From a bacterium BMS3Abin06 (GTDB lineage Bacteria > Nitrospirota > Thermodesulfovibrionia > UBA6902): 64,000 bases of DNA. Position numbers and translations under genes: made by a program. The stretch spans positions 4,644 to 68,643 of the forward strand of contig BDSY01000027.1 in NCBI GenBank assembly GCA_002897895.1, given 5' to 3'. The notes under the pieces are model-generated. The model was not told the DNA's origin, searched no databases, and saw only the letters and a list, made by a program, of their open reading frames with translations. Within the stretch, counting starts at the first letter, position 1; the number at the start of each line of letters is the position of its first letter. Shown here in pieces: positions 1 to 39,850 of the stretch.

Positions 1-34
1 AGACATCAAATAAAGAAAAAGATTTAATTGCAAA

Positions 35-2144: not shown

Positions 2145-2187
2145 TACAGGAAACAGGGTTTATTGCCGGATATTTTGAAGGATTGTG

Positions 2188-14022: not shown

Positions 14023-14031
14023 GAGACGCGT

Positions 14032-14814
14032 ATGGGAAAAGTCCAGTTTGGCCTGGAAGATAAAGGCGTTCTCATTACAGGCGCCTCAAAAGGATTAGGG
14101 GCTGTATGCGCGGGTGCGCTGAGTGAAGAAGGGGCGCGTCTGGTCCTGATGGCCCGCTCAGGAGACAGGCTTGAAGAGGTGCGGAAGAATTGCAGGGACA
14201 GAGACAGACATTTGAGTATTGCCCTGGACCTGTGTGATATGCAGGCGCTTGAAAGTGCGGTGAAAAAAGCAGAGGAGTTTCTGGGTGATATTGATGTTGT
14301 CCTGCATGTTGCCGGCGGCGGCCTGGGTATGCGTGATCCATTGTTAAGTGCGGATGAGTTCTTTAAATTGTTTTCGCTTAATGTTGCCGCGTCTGTACAG
14401 ATCAATAAAATGGTTGCCCCTAAGATGATGGAAAGAAAACAGGGAAACCTCGTTCATGTCTGTTCCATTTCATCAAGTGAAGCAACCGGTTCTGTTGGTT
14501 ACAACACTGTCAAGGCGGCTCTGGCCGCATATGTGCGCTCTCTGGGACGGGAGATTGCGGGATCAGGTGTTGTGGCAACAGGTATCCTGCCCGGTGGTTT
14601 TTATGCGCCGGAAAATGCGTTTGCCCGATTGAAAGAAAGAAATCCGGAAGGGTTTAAAGACTTTGTTGAAAGACGTCTCCCACGCAAAGTTATCGGAAGA
14701 GCAGAAGAGCTTGTCCCGATGATACTTCTATTATCTTCTGAAGCAGCATCCATGATGGGCGGGTGTCTGGTCCCTATTGATGCAGGTGAAGGATTGAATT
14801 TTATAACGTCATGA
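14032..14814 (+). CDS. SDR-family oxidoreductase
   Basis: TGASKGLG, YNTVK (YxxxK). Confidence 0.9.
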   Translation: MGKVQFGLEDKGVLITGASKGLGAVCAGALSEEGARLVLMARSGDRLEEVRKNCRDRDRHLSIALDLCDMQALESAVKKAEEFLGDIDVVLHVAGGGLGMRDPLLSADEFFKLFSLNVAASVQINKMVAPKMMERKQGNLVHVCSISSSEATGSVGYNTVKAALAAYVRSLGREIAGSGVVATGILPGGFYAPENAFARLKERNPEGFKDFVERRLPRKVIGRAEELVPMILLLSSEAASMMGGCLVPIDAGEGLNFITS

Positions 14815-20637: not shown

Positions 20638-20732
20638 GTGAGAGGCTCATTTTAAAGAAAGGATAGAGTTTAATCATGCTTAAATTAAAAGAACGACCAC
20701 GTGAAAAATATCCTTACTATTCGAGTAAATCA

Positions 20733-21749
20733 ATGAACTATAAAATTCTGGTTACCCTCGGGCCGAGCTCACTTAGTGAGCAGATCATTAATCTTATTGA
20801 AAAACAGGATATTTATCTCTTCAGGATTAATTTATCCCATACTCCACTGGATCATGTTGAGGAAAGAATAAATGAAATTAAAAAATATACTGATATCCCC
20901 ATTTGCTTAGATTCGGAAGGGGCCCAAATTCGTAATCGTATAATGGGGGAGGGCGCAGTTTTTTTACGCGAAGACAGCATGATAAAGGTTCATTTTGATG
21001 ATGTGCTGGGTGATTCTTTCAATATTTCGTTTTCACCGGATTATATTGCCACTCAGCTTCAAATTGGTGATGAAATTAGCGTTGATTTTGATGCAGCTAC
21101 AATCAGGATCACTGAGAAGCACAAAGATTATTGTTTAGCGAAAGTGATTGTTCCTGGAAACGTCGGCAGCAATAAAGCTGCGGATTTGCTGAATAGAAAG
21201 CTTGAACTCGATCCGATTACTGAAAAAGACAAGAAGGCAATAGCAATAGGAGAAAAATATGGGATAAAAAATTTCGCACTCTCTTTTGCCGGTAATAAAG
21301 ATAATGTAAAACAGTTTCGTGAATTAGCAGGGAAAGATTCAATGATTATCTCTAAGATAGAGAGTCGTTCCGGTCTACGCAACCTTGACGGAATACTCGA
21401 AGAAAGCAATGAAATTCTGATAGATCGCGGAGATCTTTCCCGTCAGGTACCTTTGGAAAAAATCCCTTTCTTCCAAAGAAAAATTATCTCTTTTGCCAGG
21501 AATAAAATGACCCCGGTTTATGTTGCAACTAATTTGCTTGAATCAATGATTATATCGGCTCAACCCACCAGAGCTGAGGTTAATGATGTGATCAGTACTT
21601 TGATGGATGGAGCGAATGGCCTCGTTCTGGCTGCCGAAACTGCGGTTGGTAAATTTCCGGTCAAATCCGTTGAGATGATAAGGCGGCTTATGGATCAACT
21701 GGAACGCTGGACGCCAAATACCAGTATTCAGGAGTTAATGGATTATTGA
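20733..21749 (+). CDS. Pyruvate kinase-like protein lacking the C-terminal regulatory domain (start ATG 20733 preferred over 20676)
   Basis: KILVTLGPS, RINLSH, SKIE, RGDL, LLESM, PTRAEV, ETAVGKFP; about 338 aa. Confidence 0.85.
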   Translation: MNYKILVTLGPSSLSEQIINLIEKQDIYLFRINLSHTPLDHVEERINEIKKYTDIPICLDSEGAQIRNRIMGEGAVFLREDSMIKVHFDDVLGDSFNISFSPDYIATQLQIGDEISVDFDAATIRITEKHKDYCLAKVIVPGNVGSNKAADLLNRKLELDPITEKDKKAIAIGEKYGIKNFALSFAGNKDNVKQFRELAGKDSMIISKIESRSGLRNLDGILEESNEILIDRGDLSRQVPLEKIPFFQRKIISFARNKMTPVYVATNLLESMIISAQPTRAEVNDVISTLMDGANGLVLAAETAVGKFPVKSVEMIRRLMDQLERWTPNTSIQELMDY

Positions 21750-21816
21750 ACTTGATTGTGTTCAATTGTGATAGCTGTTAAGGCTTATGTTTTTTTAAAA
21801 AAAGGATAGATATTTT

Positions 21817-22350
21817 ATGAACCCTATAATTTGGATAATGGGACCAACTTCAAGCGGCAAAACTACACTTGCGACAGGGCTGTTAAAAAAAATTCGCGGA
21901 GCTCAGATTAAATCTATTACATTTGATGGTGATGAGGTACGTGATTTTTTTGGAAAAGATATCGGGTTTGAACCCGCAGATCGTTTAAGGGTTGTTAGTA
22001 CTATTGTTCATCTATCCAATAAAGCCAGAGAGGCCGGGTTAGTGGTGATAGTTTCAGCCTTAACCGCCAATCAGGATGCTCGAGACTATATTTTGGAGCA
22101 ATTGAATGAGTACCTGATTGTTTATGTCGATTGTAGTATTAAGGCTTGTGCAAAGAGAGACCCAAAAGGTCTTTATGCTTTAGCTGAAAATGGCGCGATT
22201 GATTCACTTATTGGTTTTAATAACGACTATCTGCCCCCGGTTAACCCTGACATAGTCATTCAGACGGAATCTGAAACCAAGGAAGAGAGTATAAATTGTC
22301 TAATTGAATATTTAAAAAAATGCCATCCAGTTATTGAAAGGAACATATAA
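21817..22350 (+). CDS. cysC: Adenylyl-sulfate (APS) kinase-like protein
   Basis: P-loop GPTSSGKTT, DGDEVR, RDPKGLY, Y.PPVNPD. Confidence 0.75.
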   Translation: MNPIIWIMGPTSSGKTTLATGLLKKIRGAQIKSITFDGDEVRDFFGKDIGFEPADRLRVVSTIVHLSNKAREAGLVVIVSALTANQDARDYILEQLNEYLIVYVDCSIKACAKRDPKGLYALAENGAIDSLIGFNNDYLPPVNPDIVIQTESETKEESINCLIEYLKKCHPVIERNI

Positions 22351-22355
22351 ATCAT

Positions 22356-22456
22356 ATGAAATAAAAAGTTGTACGCGACCACTTTCCGTAGAAGATATAA
22401 CGGAAAAATATTGTAGTTGGCTAAATAATGAAGAGAAAAATCGAAAAAAACAATAA
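22356..22456 (+). pseudogene. Remnant of a GNAT/RimJ-like acetyltransferase N-terminus
   Basis: Frame at 22361 reads ...RPLSVEDITEKYCSWLNNEE then stops; upstream ATG 22356 is out of frame. Confidence 0.45.
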
Positions 22457-22516
22457 AGATTGCCCGGATGGAAACGAGTATAAATTCTCACCGGCTCTTT
22501 TACGATTGGAGGCGCT

Positions 22517-23854
22517 ATGATCTTGCAAGAAATTGTTCAGTTAGGGGAACAGTTTTTTTTAAATAAGCCACTGAACAACGCGGTTGAAAATCTCAAAAAA
22601 TATTTGAGCAGAGAAAAAGATAAGATACAAGAGCTGGCCGTATTGGGCTTCCAGAATGAACATATCCCGTTTTTAAATGCCCTGTCTGAGTCATTCCCCG
22701 AGTTGACTATCCGTTCTATCAATATTCCTCAAGAAAATTATCTCTGGAGAAGGTATACAGGACCGGAACAAACACAGCTTGATTACCCGTTTTCGCACAT
22801 AATACTCATTGCTCACCCGGATGGATTCCGGAAATTAATTAGATTTGTGAGATTCATGGTGGGGTATGAGACAAAAATAATATTACCCTTTTCCAAGACG
22901 GATAAAATAGAGGTGGATAAAGAGTATACTCTTGATTTGGAACCGTTGGTCAGAACAAAAATTGGTCTTTTTGGGCCGAATCATGGATCCGGATTACTCT
23001 CAAGGCAGTTGATGCCATTATTTGAGGGGCTTGATATCATGTTTGACCACACTGCGAAAGAGGCCCACCATGATGTCCGTTTTACAAGAAGTATCTCGCC
23101 TGAAAATTTATGTAAAGGTGTTGTTGGTACACGAGGGCAACTCATTCCTGCCGATAAGGTGGATGATTATTACATATCCCTTTTAAAGCTCTACCCAACC
23201 TATGACCGTTGGTTTTTTATCCATTGCTTTGTTAGCCTGGAAAAACTTGTTGAACAGACCCCCCCGGATATTGATTATATTTATTTAATCAGAGACCCAA
23301 GGGCAGTGGTAAATACTACGTATCATAGAGTAATGCACGACAACATGGAGCTGGATTTTGGCCATCTGAAAAAAATGTCAAAAGAAGAATTACTTTCATT
23401 TATTATTGACGGGTGGGAGTACCTGAGAAAGGACTACTTTCTAAGATATCCTTCTGTTCCGGATATGGTAAGGAATTCTCTATTTGCATATGAGTCGAAA
23501 TTACCTAATCTCAATTATATTAAATACGAGGATGCAATGGTTTCACCTCAAGAAACTTACAGGAATTTATTAAAAAACATTCGATTCGGAGAAAACGGGT
23601 TTACCGCTGTTTCTGATGTTGCTCTCCAAAACGCAATTGACGCAGGTTCTTTTGAAAAAATTTCAGGAGGCAAGCGAAAAAAAGGAGAGGATAACGTAGG
23701 TATTATAAAAGATGGCTATGGCACAATTACTCTCAGAAAAGGCGTCTTGCGAGATTGGGAAAATATTTTCACCACCCCGATTAAAAATAAAATAAAAGAT
23801 TTGATAGGCGATGAACTCATCAGGCTTGGATATGAGAAAGATCATGACTGGTAA
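22517..23854 (+). CDS. PAPS-dependent sulfotransferase-domain protein
   Basis: IRDPRAVV (3'-PB), IKYED, RKGVLRDWENIFT; 5'-PSB motif divergent (GPNHGSGLL). Confidence 0.75.
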   Translation: MILQEIVQLGEQFFLNKPLNNAVENLKKYLSREKDKIQELAVLGFQNEHIPFLNALSESFPELTIRSINIPQENYLWRRYTGPEQTQLDYPFSHIILIAHPDGFRKLIRFVRFMVGYETKIILPFSKTDKIEVDKEYTLDLEPLVRTKIGLFGPNHGSGLLSRQLMPLFEGLDIMFDHTAKEAHHDVRFTRSISPENLCKGVVGTRGQLIPADKVDDYYISLLKLYPTYDRWFFIHCFVSLEKLVEQTPPDIDYIYLIRDPRAVVNTTYHRVMHDNMELDFGHLKKMSKEELLSFIIDGWEYLRKDYFLRYPSVPDMVRNSLFAYESKLPNLNYIKYEDAMVSPQETYRNLLKNIRFGENGFTAVSDVALQNAIDAGSFEKISGGKRKKGEDNVGIIKDGYGTITLRKGVLRDWENIFTTPIKNKIKDLIGDELIRLGYEKDHDW

Positions 23855-23902: not shown

Positions 23903-25990
23903 ATGCAGGAAATAATTGAAATAGAGGAGGCGTGTGCCTCCGGTAATCATGAAACAGTAGTTTCAATGCTGGAGTCTATAGATTCTTTTGATATAAAAAA
24001 AGAGGCGTTTCTGAAAATTATCGGATATTATGAAAACAAATCTCTATTCGCAACAGGCTATGTGCTTTCCTTTGTGAAGTGGCTGATATTTAATCGTGAT
24101 TATAAAACAGCAATGGAATATATAAATAAATGCAGGAAAAAGAGTGTTGCGGAAGAAAGGTTATCACAACTTATTTTTGAAAGTCTTATAAAGCCGGATG
24201 AAACCTTTTACAAAGAGAAATTTAATAAAAACCTTCGACTGCTCCGGGAAAACAACATATTATTTTCAGAACAGGAGTTTGATTTTGATCAAATAAAAAA
24301 ACAGTTATTGATAATTGCAGATTACCAGCCTGCCATTCCAGAGAGCCTGCTCGAAAAAGTTAATGGCAAGAGACCGTTACTGATAGATATTATTAACGTT
24401 GAATTTATAAATAATCTCCTCAATGTTAATTATGTTTATCTTGTTTATAATGATGTGAAATTGTTTTACTATATGCTTCTGTTTGAAGACTTTTCCGGAA
24501 TAGATCAATACATCAAGCAAAAAAGGCTCATATTTTTTCTTGGTAAAGAGAAAAAAATCCTGGAAGATTTTTTCTTGAACTCATCCACTATAACGCCTGC
24601 TTTCTGTCTTGGCGAATCAATAAATGAGAAATATACTGAAATCATTAATGAGATAGTGAATGTCAGAGAAGAGAAACACCAATCCACTTTAAGGGCGCTT
24701 AATGATATTTATAAAGATCATGATTACAGATATTACAGGGACCTTTTTGCGAAAGGACCGTCAGACATAAAAATTATGCTGATAACGTCAGATAAAACCG
24801 AAATCAATCAGTTTATTGTAAGGAACTGGTATGAAGCCTTTTTGCAGATGGGATATCAGGTAAAACTGGTAATAGAAAGTGAACCCTATGAATATGTCTG
24901 CAATCATCTTATTTGCGATTCAATGAATGAATTTAAGCCGGACATTGTATTTTATATAAATTTTACGGTTAATGATATTTTCCATGATGAGGGGGAAGCA
25001 GGCAGAAATATATTATGGATATCAAGATACAGGGACTCTGTAGGCAGTGAGCTGTATCACGCTGAACCGGGTTATAAATATAATAATATGTTTATCTTGC
25101 CTGTAGCATTGGAATGGGAAGAGGAATTGAAAAAAATTGGTGTGCCTGAAAACAGAATATTGAGCACATCCGATGGAATAAACATTAATATATTTACAAA
25201 AAAGGAGAAAATAAACAAACAGCATGCCTGTGACATTGTAAACGTTAATAATGCAGTCGGAAGTTTGAATTTCAGATTGAATTATTATCTTGAAAACATA
25301 ACAAATGAAAATGTAAAAAAGGTAATTCTTGAACTGGTTGATGAGTTGAAAGAAATAGTTAGTGATGAAACGGTTATTTTTTATCTGCCCAATTCTGATA
25401 ATTTTATAGACAGGTTAAACAAAAGGATAGCACATTATGGAGGTGATTTGACTAAAAGCGGTAAAATATACATGGATAATTTTTTCCTTCATATAATGGA
25501 TTCGTTATGTCGCGCTACGGTTATGGAATGGATTATTGATTCTGGAATTACCAAAAATATCAGACTCTGGGGTAAAGGCTGGTCTAATTGTGAGAAGTTT
25601 AAAAAATACCATATGGGTGTGGCACAACATGGTGAAGAATTGTCAGCTATCTACAGAAGTAGTAAAATCTCCATATCAGACAGTTCATGGGCGCTTCATG
25701 AAAGGAATTTTGAAATTATGGCGAGCGGAGGATTTCCCTTAATAAGATATGTACAAACTCCGGAAGTCGAAGAAATGAACAAAATCACAAATCATTTTAA
25801 AGAAAATGAAGAGGTTGTGCTGTTTTATAGTAAGGATGATTTATTGAACAAGATTCAGTACTACCTTGATAACCCCGAAGAACGGGAAAGAATAGCTGAA
25901 AATGGCAGAAATGTTGTAATGCATGATTTCACTAATATTGCAATTGCAAGGAAGACAATGGAGTTTATTGGAAGTTACTATAGAGAGTGA
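23903..25990 (+). CDS. CgeB/YkvP-like glycosyltransferase (C-terminal GT-B domain)
   Basis: RLWGKGW, RNFEIMASGGF, IQYYLDNPEERERIAENG. Confidence 0.75.
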   Translation: MQEIIEIEEACASGNHETVVSMLESIDSFDIKKEAFLKIIGYYENKSLFATGYVLSFVKWLIFNRDYKTAMEYINKCRKKSVAEERLSQLIFESLIKPDETFYKEKFNKNLRLLRENNILFSEQEFDFDQIKKQLLIIADYQPAIPESLLEKVNGKRPLLIDIINVEFINNLLNVNYVYLVYNDVKLFYYMLLFEDFSGIDQYIKQKRLIFFLGKEKKILEDFFLNSSTITPAFCLGESINEKYTEIINEIVNVREEKHQSTLRALNDIYKDHDYRYYRDLFAKGPSDIKIMLITSDKTEINQFIVRNWYEAFLQMGYQVKLVIESEPYEYVCNHLICDSMNEFKPDIVFYINFTVNDIFHDEGEAGRNILWISRYRDSVGSELYHAEPGYKYNNMFILPVALEWEEELKKIGVPENRILSTSDGININIFTKKEKINKQHACDIVNVNNAVGSLNFRLNYYLENITNENVKKVILELVDELKEIVSDETVIFYLPNSDNFIDRLNKRIAHYGGDLTKSGKIYMDNFFLHIMDSLCRATVMEWIIDSGITKNIRLWGKGWSNCEKFKKYHMGVAQHGEELSAIYRSSKISISDSSWALHERNFEIMASGGFPLIRYVQTPEVEEMNKITNHFKENEEVVLFYSKDDLLNKIQYYLDNPEERERIAENGRNVVMHDFTNIAIARKTMEFIGSYYRE

Positions 25991-27335: not shown

Positions 27336-28592
27336 ATGCTGCATATTTCAAAAAAAAAGATTTGCATTGTTACCGGAACAAGGGCTGAGTACGGGCTATT
27401 TTATCCGCTGCTAAAAAGACTTGAAAACAATGCAACATTTGATTTGCAAATAGTTGCAACAGGCATGCACCTTTCTCCTGAATTTGGAATGACATATCAA
27501 GAAATTGAAGAAGACGGCTTTGACATAAAGGAGAAGGTTGAAATGCTTCTTTCAAGTGATACCGGGGTTGGTATTTCAAAATCAATCGGTATCGGGATGT
27601 TATCTTTTGCAGATGTCTTTGAAAGATTGAAACCTGACCTGCTAATAGTGCTTGGTGACAGATTTGAAATTTTTGCGGCAGTCCTGTCGGCATTTATAGC
27701 AAAAATCCCAATCGCTCATTTACACGGCGGAGAGTTGACCGAGGGAGTTATTGATGATGCCTTGCGACATTCCATCACAAAGATGTCCTGTTTTCATTTT
27801 ACATCTACAGAAAAATACAGAAAGCGGGTTATCCAGCTTGGAGAATCTCCTGACAGGGTTTTTAATGTCGGGGCAATCGGTCTTGACAATATAAATGAGA
27901 CTGAACTCCTGCAAAAAGAAGAACTGGAAAACCGGATCTATTTTAAATTCAATGGAAAAACAGCTTTGGTTACTTTTCATCCTGTTACTCTGGAAAACAA
28001 TAGTTCGGAGAAACAGTTTAAAGAGTTGCTGTATGCCCTGGAAGAGATAAAGGAATTAAAAATTATCTTCACAAAACCAAATGCCGATACAGACGGCAGG
28101 GTAATTATCGAATTGATTAATGAATACGGGAAGAGTAATCCGGGAAAAGCCATATCCTTTTCATCTATGGGAAGACTGAATTACTTGTCCGCAATGAAAT
28201 ATGTTGAACTGGTTATTGGAAATTCCTCAAGCGGGATTATAGAATTTCCATCGTTTGGAAAACCCACGGTAAATATCGGGGAGAGGCAGAGAGGGAGAAT
28301 AAAGGCTGAGAGCGTAATCGATTGCGGACCTGTCAAAGATGATATTAAAGCCGCAATAAAAAAGGCCTTATCCGATGATTTTCGGGGGTCATGCGAAGAG
28401 ATGAAGAACCCTTATGGAAATGGCGGCGCTTCAGAAAAGATAGTAAATATCCTGAAAGATAAACTGTCCGGACCCATAAACTTAAAAAAAGCTTTCTTTG
28501 ATATTAAGAAATTTTCATTGGATGAGATGAAGGCGGATAAAATTGAGAACAGAGGAGATGTTAATGCTGCAGAAAGATATATTCATTGCTGA
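27336..28592 (+). CDS. neuC: Hydrolysing nucleotide-sugar 2-epimerase (NeuC/LegG family)
   Basis: VTGTRAEYG, TGMHLS, LGDRFE, HLHGGE, LVTFHP, GNSSSG, NIGERQ. Confidence 0.93.
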   Translation: MLHISKKKICIVTGTRAEYGLFYPLLKRLENNATFDLQIVATGMHLSPEFGMTYQEIEEDGFDIKEKVEMLLSSDTGVGISKSIGIGMLSFADVFERLKPDLLIVLGDRFEIFAAVLSAFIAKIPIAHLHGGELTEGVIDDALRHSITKMSCFHFTSTEKYRKRVIQLGESPDRVFNVGAIGLDNINETELLQKEELENRIYFKFNGKTALVTFHPVTLENNSSEKQFKELLYALEEIKELKIIFTKPNADTDGRVIIELINEYGKSNPGKAISFSSMGRLNYLSAMKYVELVIGNSSSGIIEFPSFGKPTVNIGERQRGRIKAESVIDCGPVKDDIKAAIKKALSDDFRGSCEEMKNPYGNGGASEKIVNILKDKLSGPINLKKAFFDIKKFSLDEMKADKIENRGDVNAAERYIHC

Positions 28593-29634
28593 AAATGAAT
28601 CTGTAAAAGATGTATTAAAAAAATTAGACAGGACGGCTGAGAAACTCCTGTTAGTCACTGACCGGAAAAACAGGCTTCTCGGAACAATAAGTGATGGAGA
28701 TATAAGGCGCTATCTGTTGATGGGAAAAAGCCTTGAGGAGAATATTGAGGATGTCTATTATAAAAATCCCACGTTTCTCAGGAAAGGTGAGTTTTCGATG
28801 GAGTCCGCGAAAAAGATTTTTTTAAAGAAAAAAATAGATCTCATTCCTGTCCTGGACGAAGAGGACACGGTGGTGGATTACATAATCTGGAACCAGGCCT
28901 TTTCAGAAGAAGTAAGGCCGCCTAAAAACGGCAAGATAAAAGTTCCCGTGGTTATTATGGCAGGCGGAAAAGGCACAAGACTGGAACCTTTTACGAAGAT
29001 ACTTCCCAAGCCACTGATACCTGTAAATGACAAACCCATTATTGAATTAATAATAGAGGAATTTAAGAGACAGGGAGGTAAAAAGTTTTATCTGATATTG
29101 AATTCCAAGGGAGAAATGATAGAGGCTTATTTTAACGGTATTAAAAAAGATTATGAAGTGAAATATGTCCGGGAAAATAATTTTCTCGGGACAGCCGGCG
29201 GATTAAAATTGCTGAAGAGGATGGGTACGGATCTTTTTATCGTTTCAAACTGTGATGTTATTGTAAAGGCTGATTTTCAGCAGGTCATTACACGTCATAA
29301 AAAACAGAATGCTGTAATGACGGTATTATCTTCCATTCAGCACCACAAGATACCTTACGGTGTCATAAATTTCAGGGAAAAGGGGCTGGTCACTGATATC
29401 CATGAAAAACCTGAATATACAGTGACAATAAATACGGGCGTATATATATTGAGCAGGGAGGCATTAAAGTTTATACCGGAAAATACTTTTTTTGACATGA
29501 CCGACTTAATCAAGAAGTTGATCGAAAACAATAAAAAGGTAGCGACGTATCCGGTGAATGAGAATGATTATATAGATATAGGCCAGTGGGAGGAGTACAA
29601 AAATGCAGTTGAGAAACTACGGGTATTCAGGTAA
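28564..29634 (+). CDS. CBS-domain sugar-phosphate nucleotidyltransferase (PtmE-like); start ATG 28564
   Basis: N-terminal CBS (GTISDGDIRR), MAGGKGTRL..PKPL, DIGQ. Confidence 0.88.
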   Translation: MLQKDIFIAENESVKDVLKKLDRTAEKLLLVTDRKNRLLGTISDGDIRRYLLMGKSLEENIEDVYYKNPTFLRKGEFSMESAKKIFLKKKIDLIPVLDEEDTVVDYIIWNQAFSEEVRPPKNGKIKVPVVIMAGGKGTRLEPFTKILPKPLIPVNDKPIIELIIEEFKRQGGKKFYLILNSKGEMIEAYFNGIKKDYEVKYVRENNFLGTAGGLKLLKRMGTDLFIVSNCDVIVKADFQQVITRHKKQNAVMTVLSSIQHHKIPYGVINFREKGLVTDIHEKPEYTVTINTGVYILSREALKFIPENTFFDMTDLIKKLIENNKKVATYPVNENDYIDIGQWEEYKNAVEKLRVFR

Positions 29635-29670
29635 TCCCGATGCTTTTAAAAAGGTGTATCGGATTTCGTA

Positions 29671-30393
29671 ATGTATAAGGAGAGGACCATAATTGGAATT
29701 ATTCCCGCGCGCGGAGGCTCCAAAGGGTTGCCGCGAAAAAATGTTCGGGAGATATCCGGTAAGCCTTTGATCGCATGGTCAATAGAACGCGCCCTTTCTT
29801 CCAGGCATCTTGACAGGGTCATTGTGAGTACGGACGATCAGGAAATTGCGGAGACCTCAAAAAAATTCGGCGCTGAAGTTCCGTTTTTAAGACCGCCGGA
29901 AATTGCCGGAGACAAGACCCCGATGATAGATGTAATTATTCATGCTATAGAATTTTATAAAAATATAAACAGGGTTTTTGACTATATCGCGCTATTGGAG
30001 CCCACTTCACCTTTAAGGAAAATCAATGATATTGATTCTGCCATAGAAAAGTTAATCGACCATGAGGCAGAAGCGGACAGCCTTGTGAGCGTTGGAGAAG
30101 TCCAGCTTGAACATCCATCGATTATGAAGGGGATAGACGGAGATTACGTGAAACCATATGAAACGAATGCGCGAATAATAACGAGGAGACAGGAGCTGGA
30201 TAAAGTCTTTTTTCCCTATGGAGTCATCTATCTTTCAAAAACAGAGAAGCTGATTAAACACGGGACATTTTACCATGAGCGGACAATTCCGTATTTCATA
30301 GAGAGATGGCAGAATTATGAAGTAGACGATATATATGACTTTATATGTATAGATGCCGTGATGAAACAGAAGCTAAAGGAGGCCGGTAAATGA
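29671..30393 (+). CDS. neuA: CMP-nonulosonic acid synthetase (NeuA/LegF family)
   Basis: IPARGGSKGLPRKN, VSTDD, EVPFLRP, LEPTSPLR. Confidence 0.92.
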   Translation: MYKERTIIGIIPARGGSKGLPRKNVREISGKPLIAWSIERALSSRHLDRVIVSTDDQEIAETSKKFGAEVPFLRPPEIAGDKTPMIDVIIHAIEFYKNINRVFDYIALLEPTSPLRKINDIDSAIEKLIDHEAEADSLVSVGEVQLEHPSIMKGIDGDYVKPYETNARIITRRQELDKVFFPYGVIYLSKTEKLIKHGTFYHERTIPYFIERWQNYEVDDIYDFICIDAVMKQKLKEAGK

Positions 30394-31418
30394 AAGCAGT
30401 GCAGATAGGTCTGGGTTCCATGGGTAAAAGGAGGATAAGAAACCTTTTATCCGTTGGTATAAATGATATAACGGGTTTTGATAAGAGGGAAGACAGACGC
30501 AGGGAGGCGGAAGACAAATATCAGATAAAGACATCTGCTGAGCTTACCGCTGATCTGTTGTCGGAAAGCGATATCCTTATTGTTTCAACTCCGCCTGACA
30601 GGCACCTTGAGTATCTGAGGCTCGCTGTAGAGCATGGCAAGCCGGCCTTTGTCGAGGCCAGTGTTATCAGGGACGGTCTTGAGGAGGTTTCAGAGCGTGC
30701 AAAGGAAGCAAATGTACTGATCGCACCTTCCTGTACTTTCAGGTTTCACCCCGGTGTAAAGACAATCAAGGATATTGTCCTGAGCGGGAAATACGGCAAG
30801 CTCTGCAATTTTATCTATATCATGGGACAGTATCTTCCTGACTGGCATCCATGGGAGAACATAAAGGATTTTTATGTGAGTAAAAGGGAGACAAGCGCAA
30901 GCAGGGAAATGGTGCCTTTTGAGTTGACATGGCTTCTGGATATAACCGGCCGGCCGGAAGAGGTCTTTGCCTTCTACGGCAGCACCCATAATATGGGCGT
31001 TGATATTGACGATACATATAACGTGAATTTTAAATTTAAAGATTTCCTGGGAACCCTCATTGTTGATGTTGTTTCCCGTTTTGCCACAAGAAGCCTGGTA
31101 ATGAATCTTGAAAAGGCGCAGATAAGATGGAACTGGGAAGAGAGGAGAATCAGACTCTATGAAGCTGAAAATAAAAGCTGGAAACATTTTGATGAACCCG
31201 CGGGCAAGGCAGAGTCAGAGTACAATAAAAATATTATTGAGGAAATGTATGTTGATGAGATGAGCGCCTTTGTTGATTCGGCAAAGGGGATCAAACCATT
31301 TCCAAATACACTTGATGAGGACATCGGAATCCTTACAATCCTTGAAAAGGCAGAACAGACCAATAAGGGCGTGAGCCTGAACGGGGAACTGGGGAACAGA
31401 GAAACGGAGAAGGGGTGA
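30390..31418 (+). CDS. Gfo/Idh/MocA-family oxidoreductase
   Basis: IGLGSMG Rossmann, STPPDRH, YLPDWHPWE. Confidence 0.88.
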   Translation: MKAVQIGLGSMGKRRIRNLLSVGINDITGFDKREDRRREAEDKYQIKTSAELTADLLSESDILIVSTPPDRHLEYLRLAVEHGKPAFVEASVIRDGLEEVSERAKEANVLIAPSCTFRFHPGVKTIKDIVLSGKYGKLCNFIYIMGQYLPDWHPWENIKDFYVSKRETSASREMVPFELTWLLDITGRPEEVFAFYGSTHNMGVDIDDTYNVNFKFKDFLGTLIVDVVSRFATRSLVMNLEKAQIRWNWEERRIRLYEAENKSWKHFDEPAGKAESEYNKNIIEEMYVDEMSAFVDSAKGIKPFPNTLDEDIGILTILEKAEQTNKGVSLNGELGNRETEKG

Positions 31419-31480
31419 AACGGGGACGATCCGGGAGACGGAGACGCGGAGAGACGGGGAGACGGAGAGGCATGGAGAAA
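31380..31480. repeat. GGAGACGG/GGAGAAAC-type degenerate 8-mer array spanning a gene end and spacer
   Basis: gggagacggagacgcggagagacggggagacggagagg. Confidence 0.65.
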
Positions 31481-31485
31481 ATTTA

Positions 31486-32805: not shown

Positions 32806-32852
32806 TTTTCGGGAATTACAAATTATTGGTTTGTTAATATCGGTGGTAAAAT

Positions 32853-34775
32853 ATGGTTGTAAAGGCAGGTAAAAAGAAGATGAACCGTCATGGCAGGACG
32901 GTTGATTCACCACAAAGTCTTACTGATATACTCGCAGAGGCGATCAGGCTTCACCAGTCCGGGAATCTTGCAGAAGCCGAATCATTGTACCGTCAAATCC
33001 TGCTGAATGACCCTGACCATGCCGATGCATTGCATTTGCTTGGAGTAACAGCTTACCAGAGAGGCAACAACAAACAGGCTGTTGAAAATATAGAAAGGGC
33101 CATAACAATAAATCCTTCTGTATCTTTTTACCACAATAACCTGGGTAATGCATTCATGAGTTTAAATGAAAATGATAAGGCCCTCCAGTGTTTCAAAGAA
33201 GCGCTTCGCTTAAAGCCTGATAATGTTGAAGCATGCAATAACCTGGGGAATACCCTGAGAAAGCAGGGTAAAAATAAAGAAGCCCTCGTTCAATATATAA
33301 AGGCCGTAGAGATGGACCCTGATTATGTTGCTGCCATCAATAATCTTGCCAATCTGTTAAAAGGGGATGAAGCAATTATGCATTACCGCAGGGCCATAAG
33401 ATTGCAGCCTGACCTTGCGGAGGCATACTACAATCTCGGAAATGCATTGAAGGAATCAGATGAAACCGAAGAAGCCGTTGAACAATACCGCAAGGCAATA
33501 TCTATTAATCCCGGTTTTGCGGATGCGTATAATAATCTCGCCAATGTCCTTAAAAGGCAGAAAGAGTATGTTGAAGCTGCAGAGCATTACCATAAGGCGA
33601 TATCGATTAATCCGGATTTTACAGAAGCATACACTAACCTGGGAGATACTTACAGGGAAGAGGGCAGGTTTGATGAAGCCCTCAAAGAGTGCCGGAAAGC
33701 CATAAGCCTGAACCCTGCTTTTGAAGAGGCATATGTTAACCTCGGCAATATATTTCTTGATCGGGGAAATTTCCGGCAAGCTGTAGAGCAATATAACAGA
33801 GCAATTGATCTGAATCCGGATTTAGCTGATGCCCATTACAATAAGGGGCTTGTGCTGCTTTTGAAGGGTGAATTTGAAGAAGGCTGGAAGGAATATGAAT
33901 GGCGTTTTCAGAGCAGGGAGATTTCAAGAGATATTGGTTATACAAATAATGAAATAACTGTCTGGGACGGCTCACCGCTTAACGGTAAAACGATTTTAAT
34001 AATCTCGGAGCAGGGTATGGGCGACCATATTCAGTTTGTCCGTTATATCCCCCTCGTAAAAAAGCTGGGTGGCAGGGTTGTGTTTGAAAGCCGCCGGGAA
34101 CTGATGCGCCTGTTTGAAGGTTATGAGGGCATTGATCTGCTTTTGGAGGAATCTAAGAGCAGTGAATCTGATATTAATCCGGATACCTGTGTTCAGTTAC
34201 TAAGCCTGCCGCGTATATTCGGTGCAACCCTTGATACCATATTTGCCGATGTACCGTACCTGAAGGCCGATCCTGAAACAACAGATAAATGGAAATCACG
34301 TTTTAATCATGAGTTATTCAATGTAGGACTGGTATGGTCAGGCAGTACGGCACACAGGAATGACTGTAACAGGTCGTGTAGTCTTGCGGATTTTGTTCCA
34401 TTGGCGGATATTCCGGGCGTAGCCCTGTTCAGCCTGCAAAAGGGTGGTATAAGTGAAAATGGAGCGGGTATGCGGATTAAAGATATTGGAAAGGACCTTG
34501 ATGATTTTTATGATACGGCAGCGGCAATAGAAAATATGGACCTTGTGATATCAGTAGATACATCCGTTGCCCATCTGGCCGGAGCATTAGGCAGACCGGT
34601 CTGGACTCTGCTCCCTTTTGTTCCGGACTGGCGCTGGATGCTGAAACGTGAAGATACCCCATGGTATCCGACAATGCGTCTCCTGCGTCAAACAGTACCC
34701 GGAGACTGGGCAAGTGTAATGAAACGTGTTGCTGCCGAATTAAAAAACCTGACATTTGAAAGGAGCGCCAAATGA
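32853..34775 (+). CDS. TPR-repeat protein with C-terminal GT-B glycosyltransferase domain
   Basis: Multiple TPRs (AY.NLG..L); EQGMGDHIQFVRY, VDTSVAHLAGALG, DWRW. Confidence 0.85.
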   Translation: MVVKAGKKKMNRHGRTVDSPQSLTDILAEAIRLHQSGNLAEAESLYRQILLNDPDHADALHLLGVTAYQRGNNKQAVENIERAITINPSVSFYHNNLGNAFMSLNENDKALQCFKEALRLKPDNVEACNNLGNTLRKQGKNKEALVQYIKAVEMDPDYVAAINNLANLLKGDEAIMHYRRAIRLQPDLAEAYYNLGNALKESDETEEAVEQYRKAISINPGFADAYNNLANVLKRQKEYVEAAEHYHKAISINPDFTEAYTNLGDTYREEGRFDEALKECRKAISLNPAFEEAYVNLGNIFLDRGNFRQAVEQYNRAIDLNPDLADAHYNKGLVLLLKGEFEEGWKEYEWRFQSREISRDIGYTNNEITVWDGSPLNGKTILIISEQGMGDHIQFVRYIPLVKKLGGRVVFESRRELMRLFEGYEGIDLLLEESKSSESDINPDTCVQLLSLPRIFGATLDTIFADVPYLKADPETTDKWKSRFNHELFNVGLVWSGSTAHRNDCNRSCSLADFVPLADIPGVALFSLQKGGISENGAGMRIKDIGKDLDDFYDTAAAIENMDLVISVDTSVAHLAGALGRPVWTLLPFVPDWRWMLKREDTPWYPTMRLLRQTVPGDWASVMKRVAAELKNLTFERSAK

Positions 34776-37588
34776 GCATTGATAATAAGCATACATTTGA
34801 CTTTGCAGATCTGGATGAATTCATCCGGTTACCCGAGAAGAAAAGGTTTGACAGACAGGATTTTTCCACAAATAATACCTATCAAAAAAATCTTGAGGCC
34901 CTTGGCAAGCATCATCCTGAGTTGGTAGATACTATTGAATCCATATCTGTTGATGAAAGCAGAATTAAGATACTTGATTCTGAAAGCGGCAACCCAAGGA
35001 TTGTTTATGAGAGAGAGGACGGGGAAAAGATTAATATTCATAGCACGGATGATCCGGTTGCATGCGCAAACAGGGCTATTGAGCTGCTTGGTAAAATTGA
35101 AAAAGAGGGGATTGTAGTACTGTTCGGGTTTGGTCTCGGCTATTTCGTTGAGGAACTGTTTAACAGATTTGAAAAGGGACATATCGTTCTTGTATACGAA
35201 GCAACACCTGAAGTCTTTAAGTTCGCTATGCAAGTAAAGGATTTTTCAGTCCTCTTCAGTTCGGAAAAAGTCAAAATAATTCTTGGAGAGAATGCGGACA
35301 ATTTTTCAGTTATTCACAGTCACCATCATCTTATCGTTAACGGAAAGTTCTGGGTTGTAGAGCACAAGCCTTCCGTCAAATTAAATGCGGATGCATATGG
35401 TAATTTCTTCAAAAGATTAAATGAAGAGAAACGTGTCAGTGATACAGGAGTTGCCACTAATATTCAGAGGGGAAAAGAGTTTATTAATGCCTTCTTTTCA
35501 AATCTACATTCAATAGTCAGGAAGCCGGGTGTTAATGGTTTGAAAGATGTTTTTAAGGGTTGTACGGCAATAGTTGTATCAGCAGGGCCGTCCCTGGATA
35601 AAAACGTGCATTTATTGAGAAAAGCAAAAGGGAAGGCCGTTATAATTGCCACCGGAGGCGCGCTTCCGACACTCCTTTCTTCTGATATTGTTCCTGATTT
35701 GCTGGTGGAAATAGATCCTGTAAGTGACAATATAGAAGATAAATTTCAGGGGATTCCTGCACTGATGAATGTTCCGTTCATCTGTCTTGCTCAGTATACA
35801 CCTGAACTCGTCAATATATATCCCGGGCCAATGTTTATAAACAGTGTAAGCGGGAATATCGCATTTGAATGGCTAAAAGGTTTTTGGGATGAAAAGGGCT
35901 TGATTGAGTGCTTCGGCGGCTCTGTTGCCCACCTTGCATTTGCAGCCGCTGAATTTATAGGTGCAGATGTTATCGGCTTTGTCGGCCAGGACCTTTCATA
36001 TAAAGACGATAGACTGCATACCATAGGCTATTCGGATAATATGGACAGACTGTTGGAAGAAGGAGTAAAAAAGAAACAGGATAATATAATTGGAGGAGTG
36101 CATGTACGTGATATCTTCGATGAAGAAGTCCTTGCGATTAGGCAGTTCCTGGTTTTCAAAAGTTCATTTGAGAACAGGATCAAGGGAACAAATAGAGTTG
36201 TTATAAACGCGACTGAATTCGGACTCCCGATAGATGGTGCAACAAATTTGAGGCTGGTGGACTTTATGGATGAATACTGCGATGGTCAAAAAGAAATAGA
36301 TACATTTTCAGTCTTGTCAGGTTTGTTAAACAGCAACACAGACTGCAGACTTGATGATCTTATAGAAGAAGTATCAGCGGCAAGGAAGAAATTTGCAAGT
36401 ATTAAGAAGACCTCCAGCCAGATATTGAAATATACAAAAAGAGTAAAGAAACTTAAAGGAAGTGAAAATAAAGACTCTCAAGAACTTCATAATATACTTA
36501 AAAAAGTCGGACTACTTATAGAAAAAGTCAAACATCCCTTGCTTAATCTATTAATGGGATATAACTACGGACTGGAACTTTATCTGAAAAAGCAGGAAAT
36601 TCAGGACATAGATGAGATAGAAGATAAATGGGAAATGCTTGATAAACAGCTTGAAAGAGGACAGATATATTACGATGAAATTGTAGGGGCAATACGTTTA
36701 TTTAATAAGCAACTGGATAAAGCAATTACTGCACTTCAGAGGGAAAAGAGGGTGGATTCAATCCTTAATGATGGAAGTATTGAAGAAACGGAGAAATTCT
36801 ACAGGGCAGCTATAATTTATAAAAGGGCAGGTATGGCAACACAGGCAGTAAGGTATTTGGAGAAAGTAGTCAGTAGTCAGGAGTCAGAAGTCAGAAGTCA
36901 GAAAGCCTTGATCCCGCTTGCTGAGATGTATATAAAGCAATTCAGGTTCTATGAAGCAAAAGAAATATTAACAGAAGTCAGAAGTCAGAAGTCACGCATT
37001 ACGGAATTACGTGAGGTTTGCAATAAAAAAATAAGGGAATGGGAAGAAAGAAAGCTAAAGATGAATAAAATGCTTAAAGAGGCTGAAGCAAACTATGGCT
37101 CCCATCTTGAGTCGGGATATTTTTACTTCAGGATAAAGAATTTTGAAATGGCGGAAAAGGCATATTTAAAGGCAGTAAGTAATGAAGAGGCAGGAGGCAG
37201 GGAGCAGGGGGCAGGGGTAGCTGCTTGCTATGGCCTTGCACATACATACCTTGCCATGGACGATCCTGAGAAGGCTGTCGATGCCTTTGAGAAAGCGATA
37301 GAAAGGGAACCGGATAATCCAGTATTATATCGCGATCTGGGTTTTTTGGCCTTCCAGAACAATAATGTTTCATCTGCCGAGATTTTTTTTGCCAGGGCAA
37401 TAGAACTGGCGCCTGACGCAGCCGAGCTGTATAAACCTTTAGCTGATCTTTATATGGGCATCGGAGAGAGAGAAAAGGCGGTTGCCCTTTATGAGAATGC
37501 ACTGCAGGCCAACCCGGCTAATCCGGTTATTCAGCAAGACCTCGCAGTGCTTTTTAAAGAGACTATTGCAGAAACAGAGGGATGCTAA
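34772..37588 (+). CDS. Motility-associated factor (Maf/DUF115) flagellin glycosyltransferase with C-terminal TPRs
   Basis: LFGFGLGY, VVSAGPSLDKN, GGSVAH, FVGQDLSY; directly upstream of flagellin. Confidence 0.85.
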   Translation: MSIDNKHTFDFADLDEFIRLPEKKRFDRQDFSTNNTYQKNLEALGKHHPELVDTIESISVDESRIKILDSESGNPRIVYEREDGEKINIHSTDDPVACANRAIELLGKIEKEGIVVLFGFGLGYFVEELFNRFEKGHIVLVYEATPEVFKFAMQVKDFSVLFSSEKVKIILGENADNFSVIHSHHHLIVNGKFWVVEHKPSVKLNADAYGNFFKRLNEEKRVSDTGVATNIQRGKEFINAFFSNLHSIVRKPGVNGLKDVFKGCTAIVVSAGPSLDKNVHLLRKAKGKAVIIATGGALPTLLSSDIVPDLLVEIDPVSDNIEDKFQGIPALMNVPFICLAQYTPELVNIYPGPMFINSVSGNIAFEWLKGFWDEKGLIECFGGSVAHLAFAAAEFIGADVIGFVGQDLSYKDDRLHTIGYSDNMDRLLEEGVKKKQDNIIGGVHVRDIFDEEVLAIRQFLVFKSSFENRIKGTNRVVINATEFGLPIDGATNLRLVDFMDEYCDGQKEIDTFSVLSGLLNSNTDCRLDDLIEEVSAARKKFASIKKTSSQILKYTKRVKKLKGSENKDSQELHNILKKVGLLIEKVKHPLLNLLMGYNYGLELYLKKQEIQDIDEIEDKWEMLDKQLERGQIYYDEIVGAIRLFNKQLDKAITALQREKRVDSILNDGSIEETEKFYRAAIIYKRAGMATQAVRYLEKVVSSQESEVRSQKALIPLAEMYIKQFRFYEAKEILTEVRSQKSRITELREVCNKKIREWEERKLKMNKMLKEAEANYGSHLESGYFYFRIKNFEMAEKAYLKAVSNEEAGGREQGAGVAACYGLAHTYLAMDDPEKAVDAFEKAIEREPDNPVLYRDLGFLAFQNNNVSSAEIFFARAIELAPDAAELYKPLADLYMGIGEREKAVALYENALQANPANPVIQQDLAVLFKETIAETEGC
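36868..37220. repeat. Three in-frame heptamer arrays inside the maf TPR region
   Basis: AGTCAG(T/G/A) x5 at 36868-36902; CAGAAGT x3 plus TTACG-type units at 36972-37011; GG(A/G)G(G)CA-type units at about 37172-37220. Confidence 0.75.
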
Positions 37589-37978: not shown

Positions 37979-39850
37979 ATGAGTTTAGTTGTTAACACTA
38001 ATATGGCCTCTCTCAACTCGCAGAGACAGTTGGGGAGAACCAGCAGCAAGCTGTCCAAATCTATCGAGAGACTCTCTTCAGGTCTGAGAATTAACTCGGC
38101 GTCAGATGACGCTGCGGGTATGGCGATTGCTTCAAAAATGGGCGCTCAGGTCAGGGGTCTCAATCAGGCAGTAAGAAACGCGAACAATGCAATTACTCTT
38201 ACGCAGACCGCTGAAGGTGGATTAGACACGGTTACGAACATGCTTCAAAGGTTGAGGGAGCTTGCGGTACAGTCATCTTCAGATGACAATACCTCTTCCG
38301 ACCGCACAACCCTGGTAAGTGAGGCTGACAACCTCATTTCAGAGATGACAAGGCTGGTTAACACAACAGAGTATAACACCATGGGGCTTCTGGATGGGTC
38401 ATTCAGCAGTAAATATTTCCAGGTCGGCGCTAACTACGGACAGAAAGTTACATTTACTATAAGCGATTCCCGTGGTAAATCCATTGGTGGCAGAGCACAG
38501 TATGATGCTGATATTGCTGACGGTGTATTAAACGCTGAAAATGGTAATTTCGGTTCCAGCGAATTGAAAATTAACGGTTACGGCGTTAAAGCCACGAGTT
38601 CTTCTGATGACCAGTATTCTGTAATGGAAGTAATGTCAACCAGTTTATCGAATTATGCAACGGATGGAGCATTGTCTAATGTTTCCGGTACTTACACAAT
38701 GATGATAAACAACACTACTGTAAATCTTATTACGATTGCCAGTGGTACAGCTCTTACGGCAGCATCCATAGTAGACACGATTGTCAGCGCCATTAACGCG
38801 GCCTCAATAACCAATGTTTCCGCTTTCACAGTAGGCAGCACATGGGGAATAAGGGCTACTAACGGTGCAGACCTTGAGTTGACAACATCCAATGTTGCAA
38901 CCGGTGGCGCAGCATCAACTGCTGCTCTTGCTTTAACTACACTTGGAATGAACGCTGTAGCCTCAATGTTCGGTTCCGTTGTTGCTTCCGGAAGTGACAT
39001 ACTGAATGCTAACGGACAATCCAGCGCCATTGCAAAAGCTGCTGCTATAAATGAGATTAAAGCTAGTTCCGGTGTTACAGCGAATGCACAGGCAAACACT
39101 ATTACCGGGACTGCTGCTATTTCAGCAGGCTCTATCACCTCAGGCTCTGTTTATATCAATGGAGTGAATCTGGGAGCTGTAACAGTAACTGCAAGTGATG
39201 GGACGGGCGCGCTTGTAAGCGCTATCAATGATATAACATCCTCGACGGGTGTTACAGCTACCACGGATGGAGATAATAAGCTCGTTCTCACGGCAGCTGA
39301 CGGCAGAAACATTTCACTAACTGTTTCAGACACAGAGGAAACAGGTATCCTTGAACTCGGAGAAACTGCTCAGTGGACTAATAATACTGCTGTCTTCAGG
39401 TCTGCTGTAAGGTTAACGAGCGAAAGTGATATTGCATTGACCGGAACTCTCGAGGATCTTTATGAGTCTTCTTCTTCTGCTCCTGCCACTAACACAACTG
39501 ATACCAGTAAAACTGTTGCTACGGACGGAACAACATATAATGTTGCTGCAGTAGCAGTAGACACCCAGGCCAATGCAGAGGCGGCAATCCTCACTATTGA
39601 CGCAGCGCTTAACGATATTAACGGCATCAGGGCTGAGATCGGCGCTGTGCAGAACAGGCTTGAGTTTACAGTGGCCAACCTGGAGATCTCATCCGAAAAC
39701 ATGAGCGCGGCTAAAAGCCAGATCATGGATGCTGACTTTGCTTCTGAGACAGCGATATTCACAAGGAACCAGATAATGGTGCAGGCGGCTACCGCTATAC
39801 TGGCACAGGCCAATACACTGCCGCAGTTAGCACTGCAACTGCTTGGATAG
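37979..39850 (+). CDS. fliC: Flagellin
   Basis: VNTNMASLNSQRQL, LSSGLRINSASDDAAG, QVGAN, GAVQNRLE, S.IMDADFA, AQANTLPQLALQLLG. Confidence 0.98.
   Translation: MSLVVNTNMASLNSQRQLGRTSSKLSKSIERLSSGLRINSASDDAAGMAIASKMGAQVRGLNQAVRNANNAITLTQTAEGGLDTVTNMLQRLRELAVQSSSDDNTSSDRTTLVSEADNLISEMTRLVNTTEYNTMGLLDGSFSSKYFQVGANYGQKVTFTISDSRGKSIGGRAQYDADIADGVLNAENGNFGSSELKINGYGVKATSSSDDQYSVMEVMSTSLSNYATDGALSNVSGTYTMMINNTTVNLITIASGTALTAASIVDTIVSAINAASITNVSAFTVGSTWGIRATNGADLELTTSNVATGGAASTAALALTTLGMNAVASMFGSVVASGSDILNANGQSSAIAKAAAINEIKASSGVTANAQANTITGTAAISAGSITSGSVYINGVNLGAVTVTASDGTGALVSAINDITSSTGVTATTDGDNKLVLTAADGRNISLTVSDTEETGILELGETAQWTNNTAVFRSAVRLTSESDIALTGTLEDLYESSSSAPATNTTDTSKTVATDGTTYNVAAVAVDTQANAEAAILTIDAALNDINGIRAEIGAVQNRLEFTVANLEISSENMSAAKSQIMDADFASETAIFTRNQIMVQAATAILAQANTLPQLALQLLG

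Follow-up and report, generated by a model that had tools for sequence, protein, structure and literature searches.

A short pyruvate kinase paralogue linked to sulfate activation and its predicted place in a PAPS-supply and sulfation cassette of a flagellin glycosylation island

Background

We report a three-gene cassette from the Nitrospirota bacterium BMS3Abin06 that combines a short paralogue of pyruvate kinase (PK), here termed sPK, with a variant adenosine 5'-phosphosulfate (APS) kinase and a sulfotransferase of the type that uses 3'-phosphoadenosine 5'-phosphosulfate (PAPS). It lies in a stretch of 64,000 nucleotides (assembly GCA_002897895.1, contig BDSY01000027.1, positions 4,644 to 68,643 of the forward strand), the whole of which we call the window and by whose positions all its features are given. 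The sPK belongs to a widespread family that is either fused to ATP sulfurylase (Sat) or typically encoded beside an APS kinase, and this ties it to sulfate activation rather than to the carbon metabolism of sugars. We consider it fairly probable that the genes form a horizontally acquired cassette for PAPS supply and flagellin-glycan sulfation in which sPK recycles ADP. The three genes are as follows:

20733..21749 (alternative start 20676), + strand: sPK, the short pyruvate kinase paralogue, with A barrel and B lid and no C domain
21817..22350, + strand: variant APS kinase (PF01583, 4.9e-34)
22517..23854, + strand: PAPS-type sulfotransferase (weak PF00685 match, family motifs, fold)

Results and discussion

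The short pyruvate kinase retains the catalytic core

A sequence-only reading of the window had described these genes as a short PK of about 338 residues without its C domain, a divergent APS kinase with a GPTSSGKTT P-loop and a sulfotransferase, together forming a PAPS-supply module for glycan sulfation. The open reading frame (ORF), Pfam matches and motifs of the first gene agree with that description. Counted from 20733 the protein has 338 residues and covers the Pfam PF00224 barrel from end to end (2e-62, profile positions 4-328 of 328), whereas the Pfam scan found no match to PK_C (PF02887), the protein stopping about 25 residues past the barrel. A better Shine-Dalgarno sequence precedes the start at 20676, but the 19 extra residues that this start would add are disordered in the structural model and missing from most homologues (94% query coverage), and hence we leave the start at either position.

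The window sPK carries CLDSEGAQIR, DRGDL and ATNLLESM, and the full set of family motifs, namely CxDSEGAQxR, DRGDLSRQ, ATNLLESM, LVLAAETA and ERWTPNTS, can be found in it. An alignment of 22 family members showed R50, N52, S54, H55, D79, R86, K167, K227, E229, D253, T285 and E321 to be invariant, and these residues align with the catalytic, Mg2+, K+ and nucleotide-phosphate ligand positions of PK. With respect to the rabbit enzyme, R50, N52, S54, D79 and R86 correspond to R72, N74, S76, D112 and R119, and K227, E229, D253, T285 and E321 to K269, E271, D295, T327 and E363; we take their roles in sPK to be those established for PK structures. The AlphaFold2 (AF2) model has a pLDDT of 88 and shows a β-rich insert, the B lid, at residues 88-178. 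Foldseek superimposes it on the human M1 and M2 enzymes at 2.6-2.9 Å with a query-normalised TM-score (TMq) of about 0.8, and as modelled sPK is thus a full A+B pyruvate kinase core.

At the same time sPK scores below the cut-off of the NCBIfam PK equivalog TIGR01064 (245.6 against 306.4 bits) and is only 33% identical to the canonical PK of the same genome. The latter, a protein of 474 residues with both PK and PK_C domains encoded on contig C85, rules out that sPK is the sole, housekeeping PK of the cell. Given this canonical enzyme, the conservation of the sPK family and the confident fold, we conclude that sPK is neither a housekeeping enzyme nor a pseudogene.

The sPK family is associated with sulfate activation

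Searches with sPK recovered 4702 matches at E <= 0.001, with relatives of about 337 residues and identities of 56-79% among the matches listed, and when one genome per species was scanned, at least 448 species genomes proved to carry the gene. The carriers include Pseudomonadota, Thermodesulfobacteriota, Nitrospinota, Omnitrophota, Planctomycetota, Chloroflexota and others, with Maridesulfovibrio, Sinorhizobium, Ensifer and Mesorhizobium among the cultured forms. This spread bears on the alternative that sPK is a decaying, truncated PK or a non-catalytic scaffold. Such a view would draw on the missing C-terminal domain, which in PK mediates tetramer contacts and allosteric control; but a length of about 337 residues is maintained across all these species with invariant catalytic residues, the reading frame in the window is intact and the fold is modelled with confidence. 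The pseudogene is contradicted by the family-wide conservation and we reject it, and the alternative as a whole is scarcely credible.

To survey genomic neighbourhoods we kept 80 genome loci and 80 independent metagenome loci and called their ORFs anew. The metagenome loci came from an alignment-based scan, a single-protein sPK scan of the metagenomes having given none, and many of them are too short to reveal more neighbours. In the genome loci, where sPK is 45-62% identical to that of the window, the length of the sPK-bearing ORF is bimodal, at about 337 or about 726 residues. The five long ORFs scanned for domains all proved to be sPK::PUA_2::ATP-sulfurylase fusions with sPK as the N-terminal half. 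Such fusions make up 42 of the 76 sPK sequences placed in a tree, and a search for longer proteins found the sPK::ATP-sulfurylase architecture in 119 of the best 120 of 2206 matches. The tree of the sPK domain is a quick maximum-likelihood one, read unrooted and used only for the split between fused and stand-alone forms: a branch supported at 100% has all 42 fused forms together on the same side, which suggests that fusion or fission happened once in the sample. The window sPK is placed among the stand-alone forms, beside that of locus L007.

An APS kinase gene directly adjoins sPK or the fusion in at least 47 of the 80 genome loci, and adjoins sPK in 49 of the 80 metagenome loci. In about half of the 80 genome loci sPK is fused to ATP sulfurylase, and in most it lies beside an APS kinase. 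The commonest Pfam domains among 132 flanking ORFs include Sulfotransfer_1 (11), Sulfotransfer_3 (11), Na_H_Exchanger (11), Sulfatase (6) and TauE (6). In contrast, a homologue of the thiamine diphosphate (ThDP) enzyme of the window is found near sPK in two of the 80 genome loci and a NeuB homologue in eight. Taken together, the fusions, the adjacency of APS kinase and the sulfur-related neighbours, set against the rarity of ThDP and NeuB genes, indicate that sPK belongs to sulfate activation and not to sugar carbon chemistry. In the literature searched we found no description of a PK-sulfurylase fusion or of this sPK family.

The same counts speak to the possibility, part of which the sequence-only reading had raised, that sPK serves sugar carbon metabolism, either supplying pyruvate to the ThDP enzyme or balancing phosphoenolpyruvate (PEP) for a NeuB-type synthase, its proximity to the APS kinase being incidental. 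A ThDP enzyme and a NeuB homologue do lie in the same island as sPK, and in two Piscirickettsiaceae loci a ThDP homologue lies no more than 6 kb from it. However, those few cases stand against Sat fused in 42 loci and APS kinase adjacent in at least 47; furthermore, the canonical PK already makes pyruvate for the cell and the base composition of sPK is unlike that of the block holding the ThDP and radical-SAM genes. A pyruvate feed to the ThDP enzyme therefore finds no support, and we judge the whole alternative most improbable.

Several other features of the family were observed in the course of this survey. One protein from outside the window, P0277 (667 residues), joins DUF4862 (PF16154, 1.4e-84) to an sPK domain 54% identical to that of the window, DUF4862 being the second fusion partner seen for the family. 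Seven rhizobial loci (L048, L051, L060, L064, L071, L075 and L083, at about 12800-14300) encode a membrane protein of the Na_H_Exchanger family after the sPK::Sat fusion and the variant APS kinase; upstream of the fusion come a gene resembling a Wzy_C polymerase and two ORFs that Pfam does not clearly assign, one with a weak AAA_33 hit. From their gene content these look like surface-polysaccharide sulfation loci, in which the transporter may import sulfate. Three Nisaea loci (L056, L065 and L072) have a radical-SAM/SPASM gene downstream of sPK::Sat and no APS kinase nearby; its product may be a sulfatase maturase, hinting at loci for sulfate recycling.

A variant clade of APS kinases accompanies sPK

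The second gene of the cassette begins 68 nucleotides downstream of sPK. Its product is an APS kinase homologue by its match to PF01583 (4.9e-34; 118 bits, the cut-off being 21.1), and it aligns over its full length with solved APS kinases, the best match in the PDB being 7yq0 (1.5e-29), followed by 5cb6 (2.1e-26); the Aquifex aeolicus protein 2gks is matched at 1.7e-21. Compared with 7yq0 and 5cb6 it keeps the GPTSSGKTT P-loop, FDGDEVR, GFEPADR and the lid motif RDPKGLY. It belongs to a variant clade that can be recognized by the signatures MGPTSSGKTT, DRLRVV, EIDTLIGYN and VSALTA, the last where ISP is expected, and the sequence-only reading was justified in calling it divergent. Members of this clade accompany the stand-alone sPKs, and in rhizobia they are encoded immediately 3' of sPK::Sat; the latter position, directly after a fusion that includes ATP sulfurylase, argues that the variant clade still handles APS. 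Among cultured carriers, Maridesulfovibrio sp. FT414 (L035) combines a stand-alone sPK with the variant kinase, whereas Sinorhizobium saheli (L048) and Ensifer sp. BR816 (L064) have the fusion.

The third gene encodes a PAPS-type sulfotransferase

Sequence similarity of the third gene product to known sulfotransferases is weak, with a PF00685 (Sulfotransfer_1) score of 22.4 bits against a cut-off of 22. A word-indexed search gave four relatives and an exhaustive HMMER search 277, of which about 20 are full length. In the family alignment R259, D260, P261 and R262 of the segment RDPRD (259-263) are invariant and D263 is nearly so, and in RKGxxGDW (407-414) R407 is invariant and G409, G412, D413 and W414 are nearly so; we take these two segments to be the 3'-phosphate-binding signatures of PAPS sulfotransferases. 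As read from the alignment, the 5'-phosphosulfate loop (PKxGTTW) would be represented by the variant P154-N-H-G157-S-G, in which G157 is invariant and P154 nearly so, and the nearly invariant H236 is a candidate catalytic base.

The AF2 model (pLDDT 91) places a catalytic domain at about residues 145-445, after an N-terminal α/β domain of about 140 residues. The best 50 Foldseek matches are all sulfotransferases bound to PAPS or to 3'-phosphoadenosine 5'-phosphate (PAP), together with a close relative, retinol dehydratase, at probability 1.0, E-values down to 6.7e-9 and target-normalised TM-scores (TMt) of 0.43-0.62. Thus, the modelled fold and the family motifs bear out the weak profile match, and on these grounds the product is a PAPS-type sulfotransferase. 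Among the 160 sPK loci we found no close homologue of it, only weak matches in the Nitrospina-like loci L046, L049, L050 and L165 and one of 39 residues in L027; these loci do not show this sulfotransferase family travelling with sPK.

A probable dissimilatory source of APS

A profile search of the genome with PF01747 found no ATP sulfurylase in the window. The only Sat of the genome lies on contig C79 (34331-34960), beside AprA (31715-33649 of the same contig), so that, as the sequence-only reading had anticipated, APS would have to come from a Sat encoded elsewhere. The genome also encodes DsrAB. Judged by this gene content, the arrangement is the dissimilatory sat-apr one and the organism a dissimilatory sulfur organism. 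Given DsrAB and the location of the sole Sat next to AprA, this cell has APS as a main-line metabolite, and the cassette would therefore need only a kinase to make PAPS from it. In accord with this, of 20 genomes in which sPK stands alone, 14 encode a Sat-type sulfurylase as a gene of its own; the remaining six are metagenome-assembled genomes, which may be incomplete or may use CysDN.

Elsewhere in the genome there is a canonical APS kinase on contig C78 (225 bits) and one gene of the Inositol_P family, whose product could remove PAP. Three further Sulfotransfer_3 genes lie on contigs C22 and C44, two of them close together on C44, which implies that the organism sulfates other targets as well, probably by means of the canonical APS kinase on C78.

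Predicted function of the cassette

The sPK::Sat fusions, the adjacency of APS kinase, the sulfur-related neighbours and the fold and motifs of the sulfotransferase all back the earlier proposal of PAPS supply for glycan sulfation, and we regard that part of the function as very probable. As for sPK, ordinary PK chemistry in a dedicated place is the most economical interpretation, and on the evidence of sequence the balance tilts slightly towards its recycling ADP. In the scheme that we propose, APS would be drawn from the dissimilatory sulfur pathway, whose Sat-AprA cluster lies on another contig, and the variant APS kinase would convert APS and ATP to PAPS and ADP. Beside this ADP-making kinase sPK would use PEP to return ADP to ATP, with release of pyruvate, so that ATP is kept high and ADP low at that spot. 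The sulfotransferase would then move the sulfate of PAPS to a hydroxyl of a nonulosonate-based glycan or its precursor. The sequences show the domain identities, the conserved catalytic residues, the linkage of sPK to Sat and APS kinase across the family, and the Sat, canonical PK and canonical APS kinase encoded elsewhere in the genome; that sPK acts as a PK, what it contributes kinetically, which group accepts the sulfate and that the product reaches flagellin are inferences.

Two published observations indicate what such recycling could achieve. A dead-end complex of APS kinase with ADP and APS (E-ADP-APS) has been described (PMC3734648), and when PAPS was synthesised in vitro it was "practically missing" unless PK and PEP regenerated the ATP (PMC9885120). 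A cell with a large flux of APS would gain most from PEP-driven recycling of ADP. A broader proposal would make sPK, whether on its own or joined to ATP sulfurylase, a third component of bacterial sulfate activation, powered by PEP, which frees PAPS synthesis from the ATP/ADP ratio and from the APS-ADP trap, and which in this organism uses APS of the dissimilatory pool for a sulfated nonulosonate glycan on flagellin, a modification of which we found no report. We offer this tentatively, being rather more inclined to doubt than to assert it in full.

A number of observations weigh against these proposals. Canonical forms of both APS kinase and PK are already present in the genome, and sequence alone does not explain the need for extra copies. 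Fusion of sPK to Sat is not obviously accounted for by the recycling of ADP, because Sat makes pyrophosphate and no ADP, and no APS kinase was seen within 10 kb of the fusion in about 19 sPK::Sat loci. Near the active site the aligned sPKs show invariant departures from canonical PK, with DSEGAQ for DTKGPE, D250 for Ala, N286 for Gln, and AA for SG before E321; by comparison with PK these substitutions could mean an altered substrate or an altered dependence on cations. The position of E117 of rabbit PK is taken by Gln in sPK, which bears on the dependence on K+. On the side of the APS kinase, the window protein just misses the cut-off of TIGR00455 (133.7 against 138.7 bits), and where other APS kinases have ISP(Y/F) and an NIRR/NN segment with its Asn it has LTAN and LRVVS, a change conserved throughout the variant clade.

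Alternatively, sPK could be a neofunctionalised phosphotransferase of sulfate activation, acting on a sulfonucleotide or another nucleotide (APS, PAP, AMP or GDP), or it could couple cleavage of PEP to the unfavourable ATP sulfurylase step, much as the CysN GTPase energetically drives the CysD sulfurylase step. The fusion to an enzyme that yields no ADP, the fusion loci devoid of a nearby APS kinase, the family-specific invariant substitutions beside the catalytic motifs and the score below the PK equivalog cut-off are all in keeping with such a shift. On the other hand, the canonical ligand positions for PEP, Mg2+, K+ and nucleotide phosphate are all kept, the PK and Sat chemistries have no known common chemical intermediate, and the stand-alone forms pair with APS kinase rather than with Sat. 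We consider neofunctionalisation unlikely.

The divergence of the APS kinase clade from TIGR00455 and from the ISP and NIRR-type motifs, along with the variant PNHGSG loop of the sulfotransferase, could likewise be taken to mean that the pair makes and uses some other 3'-phosphorylated nucleotide donor, the "sulfotransferase" moving a group other than sulfate. A precedent would be the CysC-like cytidine diphosphoramidate kinase in the O-methyl phosphoramidate pathway of Campylobacter. Yet the same kinase clade directly follows the sPK::ATP-sulfurylase fusions of rhizobia, the neighbouring genes encode sulfotransferases, sulfatases and TauE permeases, every named family and PDB match of the kinase is an APS kinase, and no nucleotidyltransferase is conserved alongside the pair. 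A donor other than PAPS is thus very unlikely, and PAPS supply with recycling of ADP remains our preferred explanation.

If correct, this explanation would change the textbook picture of PAPS synthesis as a chemistry of two enzymes by adding a conserved third partner, present in at least 448 species genomes and thousands of protein clusters. It would correct a systematic annotation error affecting genes now called "pyruvate kinase" or "sulfate adenylyltransferase", and would give enzymatic sulfation a source of compact PAPS synthases powered by PEP. For the organism itself, it predicts a flagellin glycan that draws its sulfate from APS of the respiratory pool, so that decoration of the cell surface would be tied to energy metabolism.

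Setting in a flagellin glycosylation island

All genes from position 35 to about 43500 of the window lie on the + strand according to ORF calling and Pfam scans. By its gene content this region is a Maf-type flagellin glycosylation island, since a Maf gene adjoins flagellin and NeuB, CMP-transferase and 2-epimerase genes are present. Beyond the cassette, the principal features are the following:

2823-3824, + strand: NeuB homologue
8363-10927, + strand: ThDP enzyme, acetolactate-synthase-like
23903..25990, + strand: 695-residue glycosyltransferase, with Pfam Glyco_trans_1_2 at its C terminus
34772..37588, + strand: Maf-type flagellin glycosyltransferase with tetratricopeptide (TPR) repeats (PF01973 MptE-like, 1.2e-37; Maf_flag10_N)
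37979..39850, + strand: flagellin (Flagellin_N, Flagellin_C, Flagellin_IN)

The island starts with nonulosonate genes for a dehydratase, a DegT aminotransferase, a PglD-like acetyltransferase and NeuB. A second block holds six radical-SAM enzymes with HAD, DJ-1, ThDP, altronate-dehydratase-like, short-chain dehydrogenase/reductase (SDR) and methyltransferase genes, and is followed in order by sPK, APS kinase, sulfotransferase, the 695-residue glycosyltransferase and a Uma2 gene. Next comes a second nonulosonate set, with a hydrolysing 2-epimerase, a CBS-nucleotidyltransferase, a CMP-transferase, a GFO oxidoreductase and an aminotransferase, and the island ends with genes for a TPR protein, Maf, flagellin, FlaG, FliD and FliS, in that order. 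The flagellin at 37979..39850 is the presumed carrier of the sulfated glycan.

The nonulosonate genes thus form two blocks (1-3824 and 27336-32805) on either side of the radical-SAM and sulfation cassettes, and the set of CBS-nucleotidyltransferase, hydrolysing 2-epimerase, GFO oxidoreductase and class-III aminotransferase resembles a route of the legionaminic-acid type. The ThDP enzyme has an N-terminal extension of about 250 residues with no Pfam match. Just past fliS, on the - strand (43925-45220), lies a seventh B12-binding radical-SAM gene, with DUF4070.

With regard to provenance, a search of 30 relatives belonging to the same genus, family or order found only canonical PK, and no sPK in any of them. 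The G+C content at third codon positions (GC3) is 0.32-0.39 for sPK, APS kinase, sulfotransferase, glycosyltransferase and Uma2, as against 0.44-0.59 for the radical-SAM block just upstream. The absence of sPK from the relatives and a GC3 below that of the neighbouring genes argue that the cassette is accessory, and, to judge from these sequence features, it was most likely inserted into a pre-existing island. The 695-residue glycosyltransferase (GC 0.33, GC3 0.33) is probably a further member of this acquired low-GC cassette, as suggested by composition and adjacency only. Between 25991 and 27335 two long non-coding gaps lie on either side of the Uma2 gene, each with a near-repeat, GCAATGCCTGACACAAGG and GCAATGTCTGACACAAGG; these near-repeats may mark a junction of the inserted low-GC cassette.

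Comparison with known systems

Dedicated PAPS genes within a locus for glycoconjugate modification are known from rhizobia, in the form of NodP/NodQ and the NodH sulfotransferase. The window resembles that system in having a pathway-specific copy of sulfate-activation genes beside a sulfotransferase in a surface-glycan locus, with housekeeping copies elsewhere. However, NodPQ is of the CysD/CysN type with a fused APS kinase and includes the sulfurylase step, whereas the window cassette has no sulfurylase, a stand-alone variant APS kinase and an added PK paralogue that has no Nod counterpart. Bifunctional PAPS synthases that combine Sat and APS kinase, such as 2gks of Aquifex aeolicus, likewise couple steps of sulfate activation physically or genetically. 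They lack a PK domain, whereas in the sPK family it is sPK that is the fusion partner of Sat; in the window, moreover, the parts are separate genes and Sat is encoded elsewhere in the genome.

With canonical PKs (PykF/PykA, PKM) sPK shares the A barrel, the B lid and the catalytic residues, and it differs from them in lacking the C-terminal allosteric and tetramerisation domain and in having a motif set of its own. The in-vitro regeneration of ATP by PK and PEP for PAPS synthesis (PMC9885120) relies on the same chemistry that we propose here, with PEP and ADP giving the ATP that sustains APS kinase. That system is a laboratory device with a commercial PK, while the pairing with sPK is genome-encoded and its activity predicted; if our interpretation holds, sPK would be the natural counterpart of this trick of biocatalysis.

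Maf-type flagellin islands with legionaminic or pseudaminic acid are known in Campylobacter and Aeromonas, and the island of the window is like these in having Maf beside flagellin together with NeuB, a CMP-transferase, a hydrolysing 2-epimerase and a CBS-nucleotidyltransferase. We found no description, in the literature searched, of a flagellin (nonulosonate) island with a PAPS module or a sulfotransferase. Pathway-specific PAPS genes and fused PAPS synthases being already known, the new element of the cassette is the PK paralogue.

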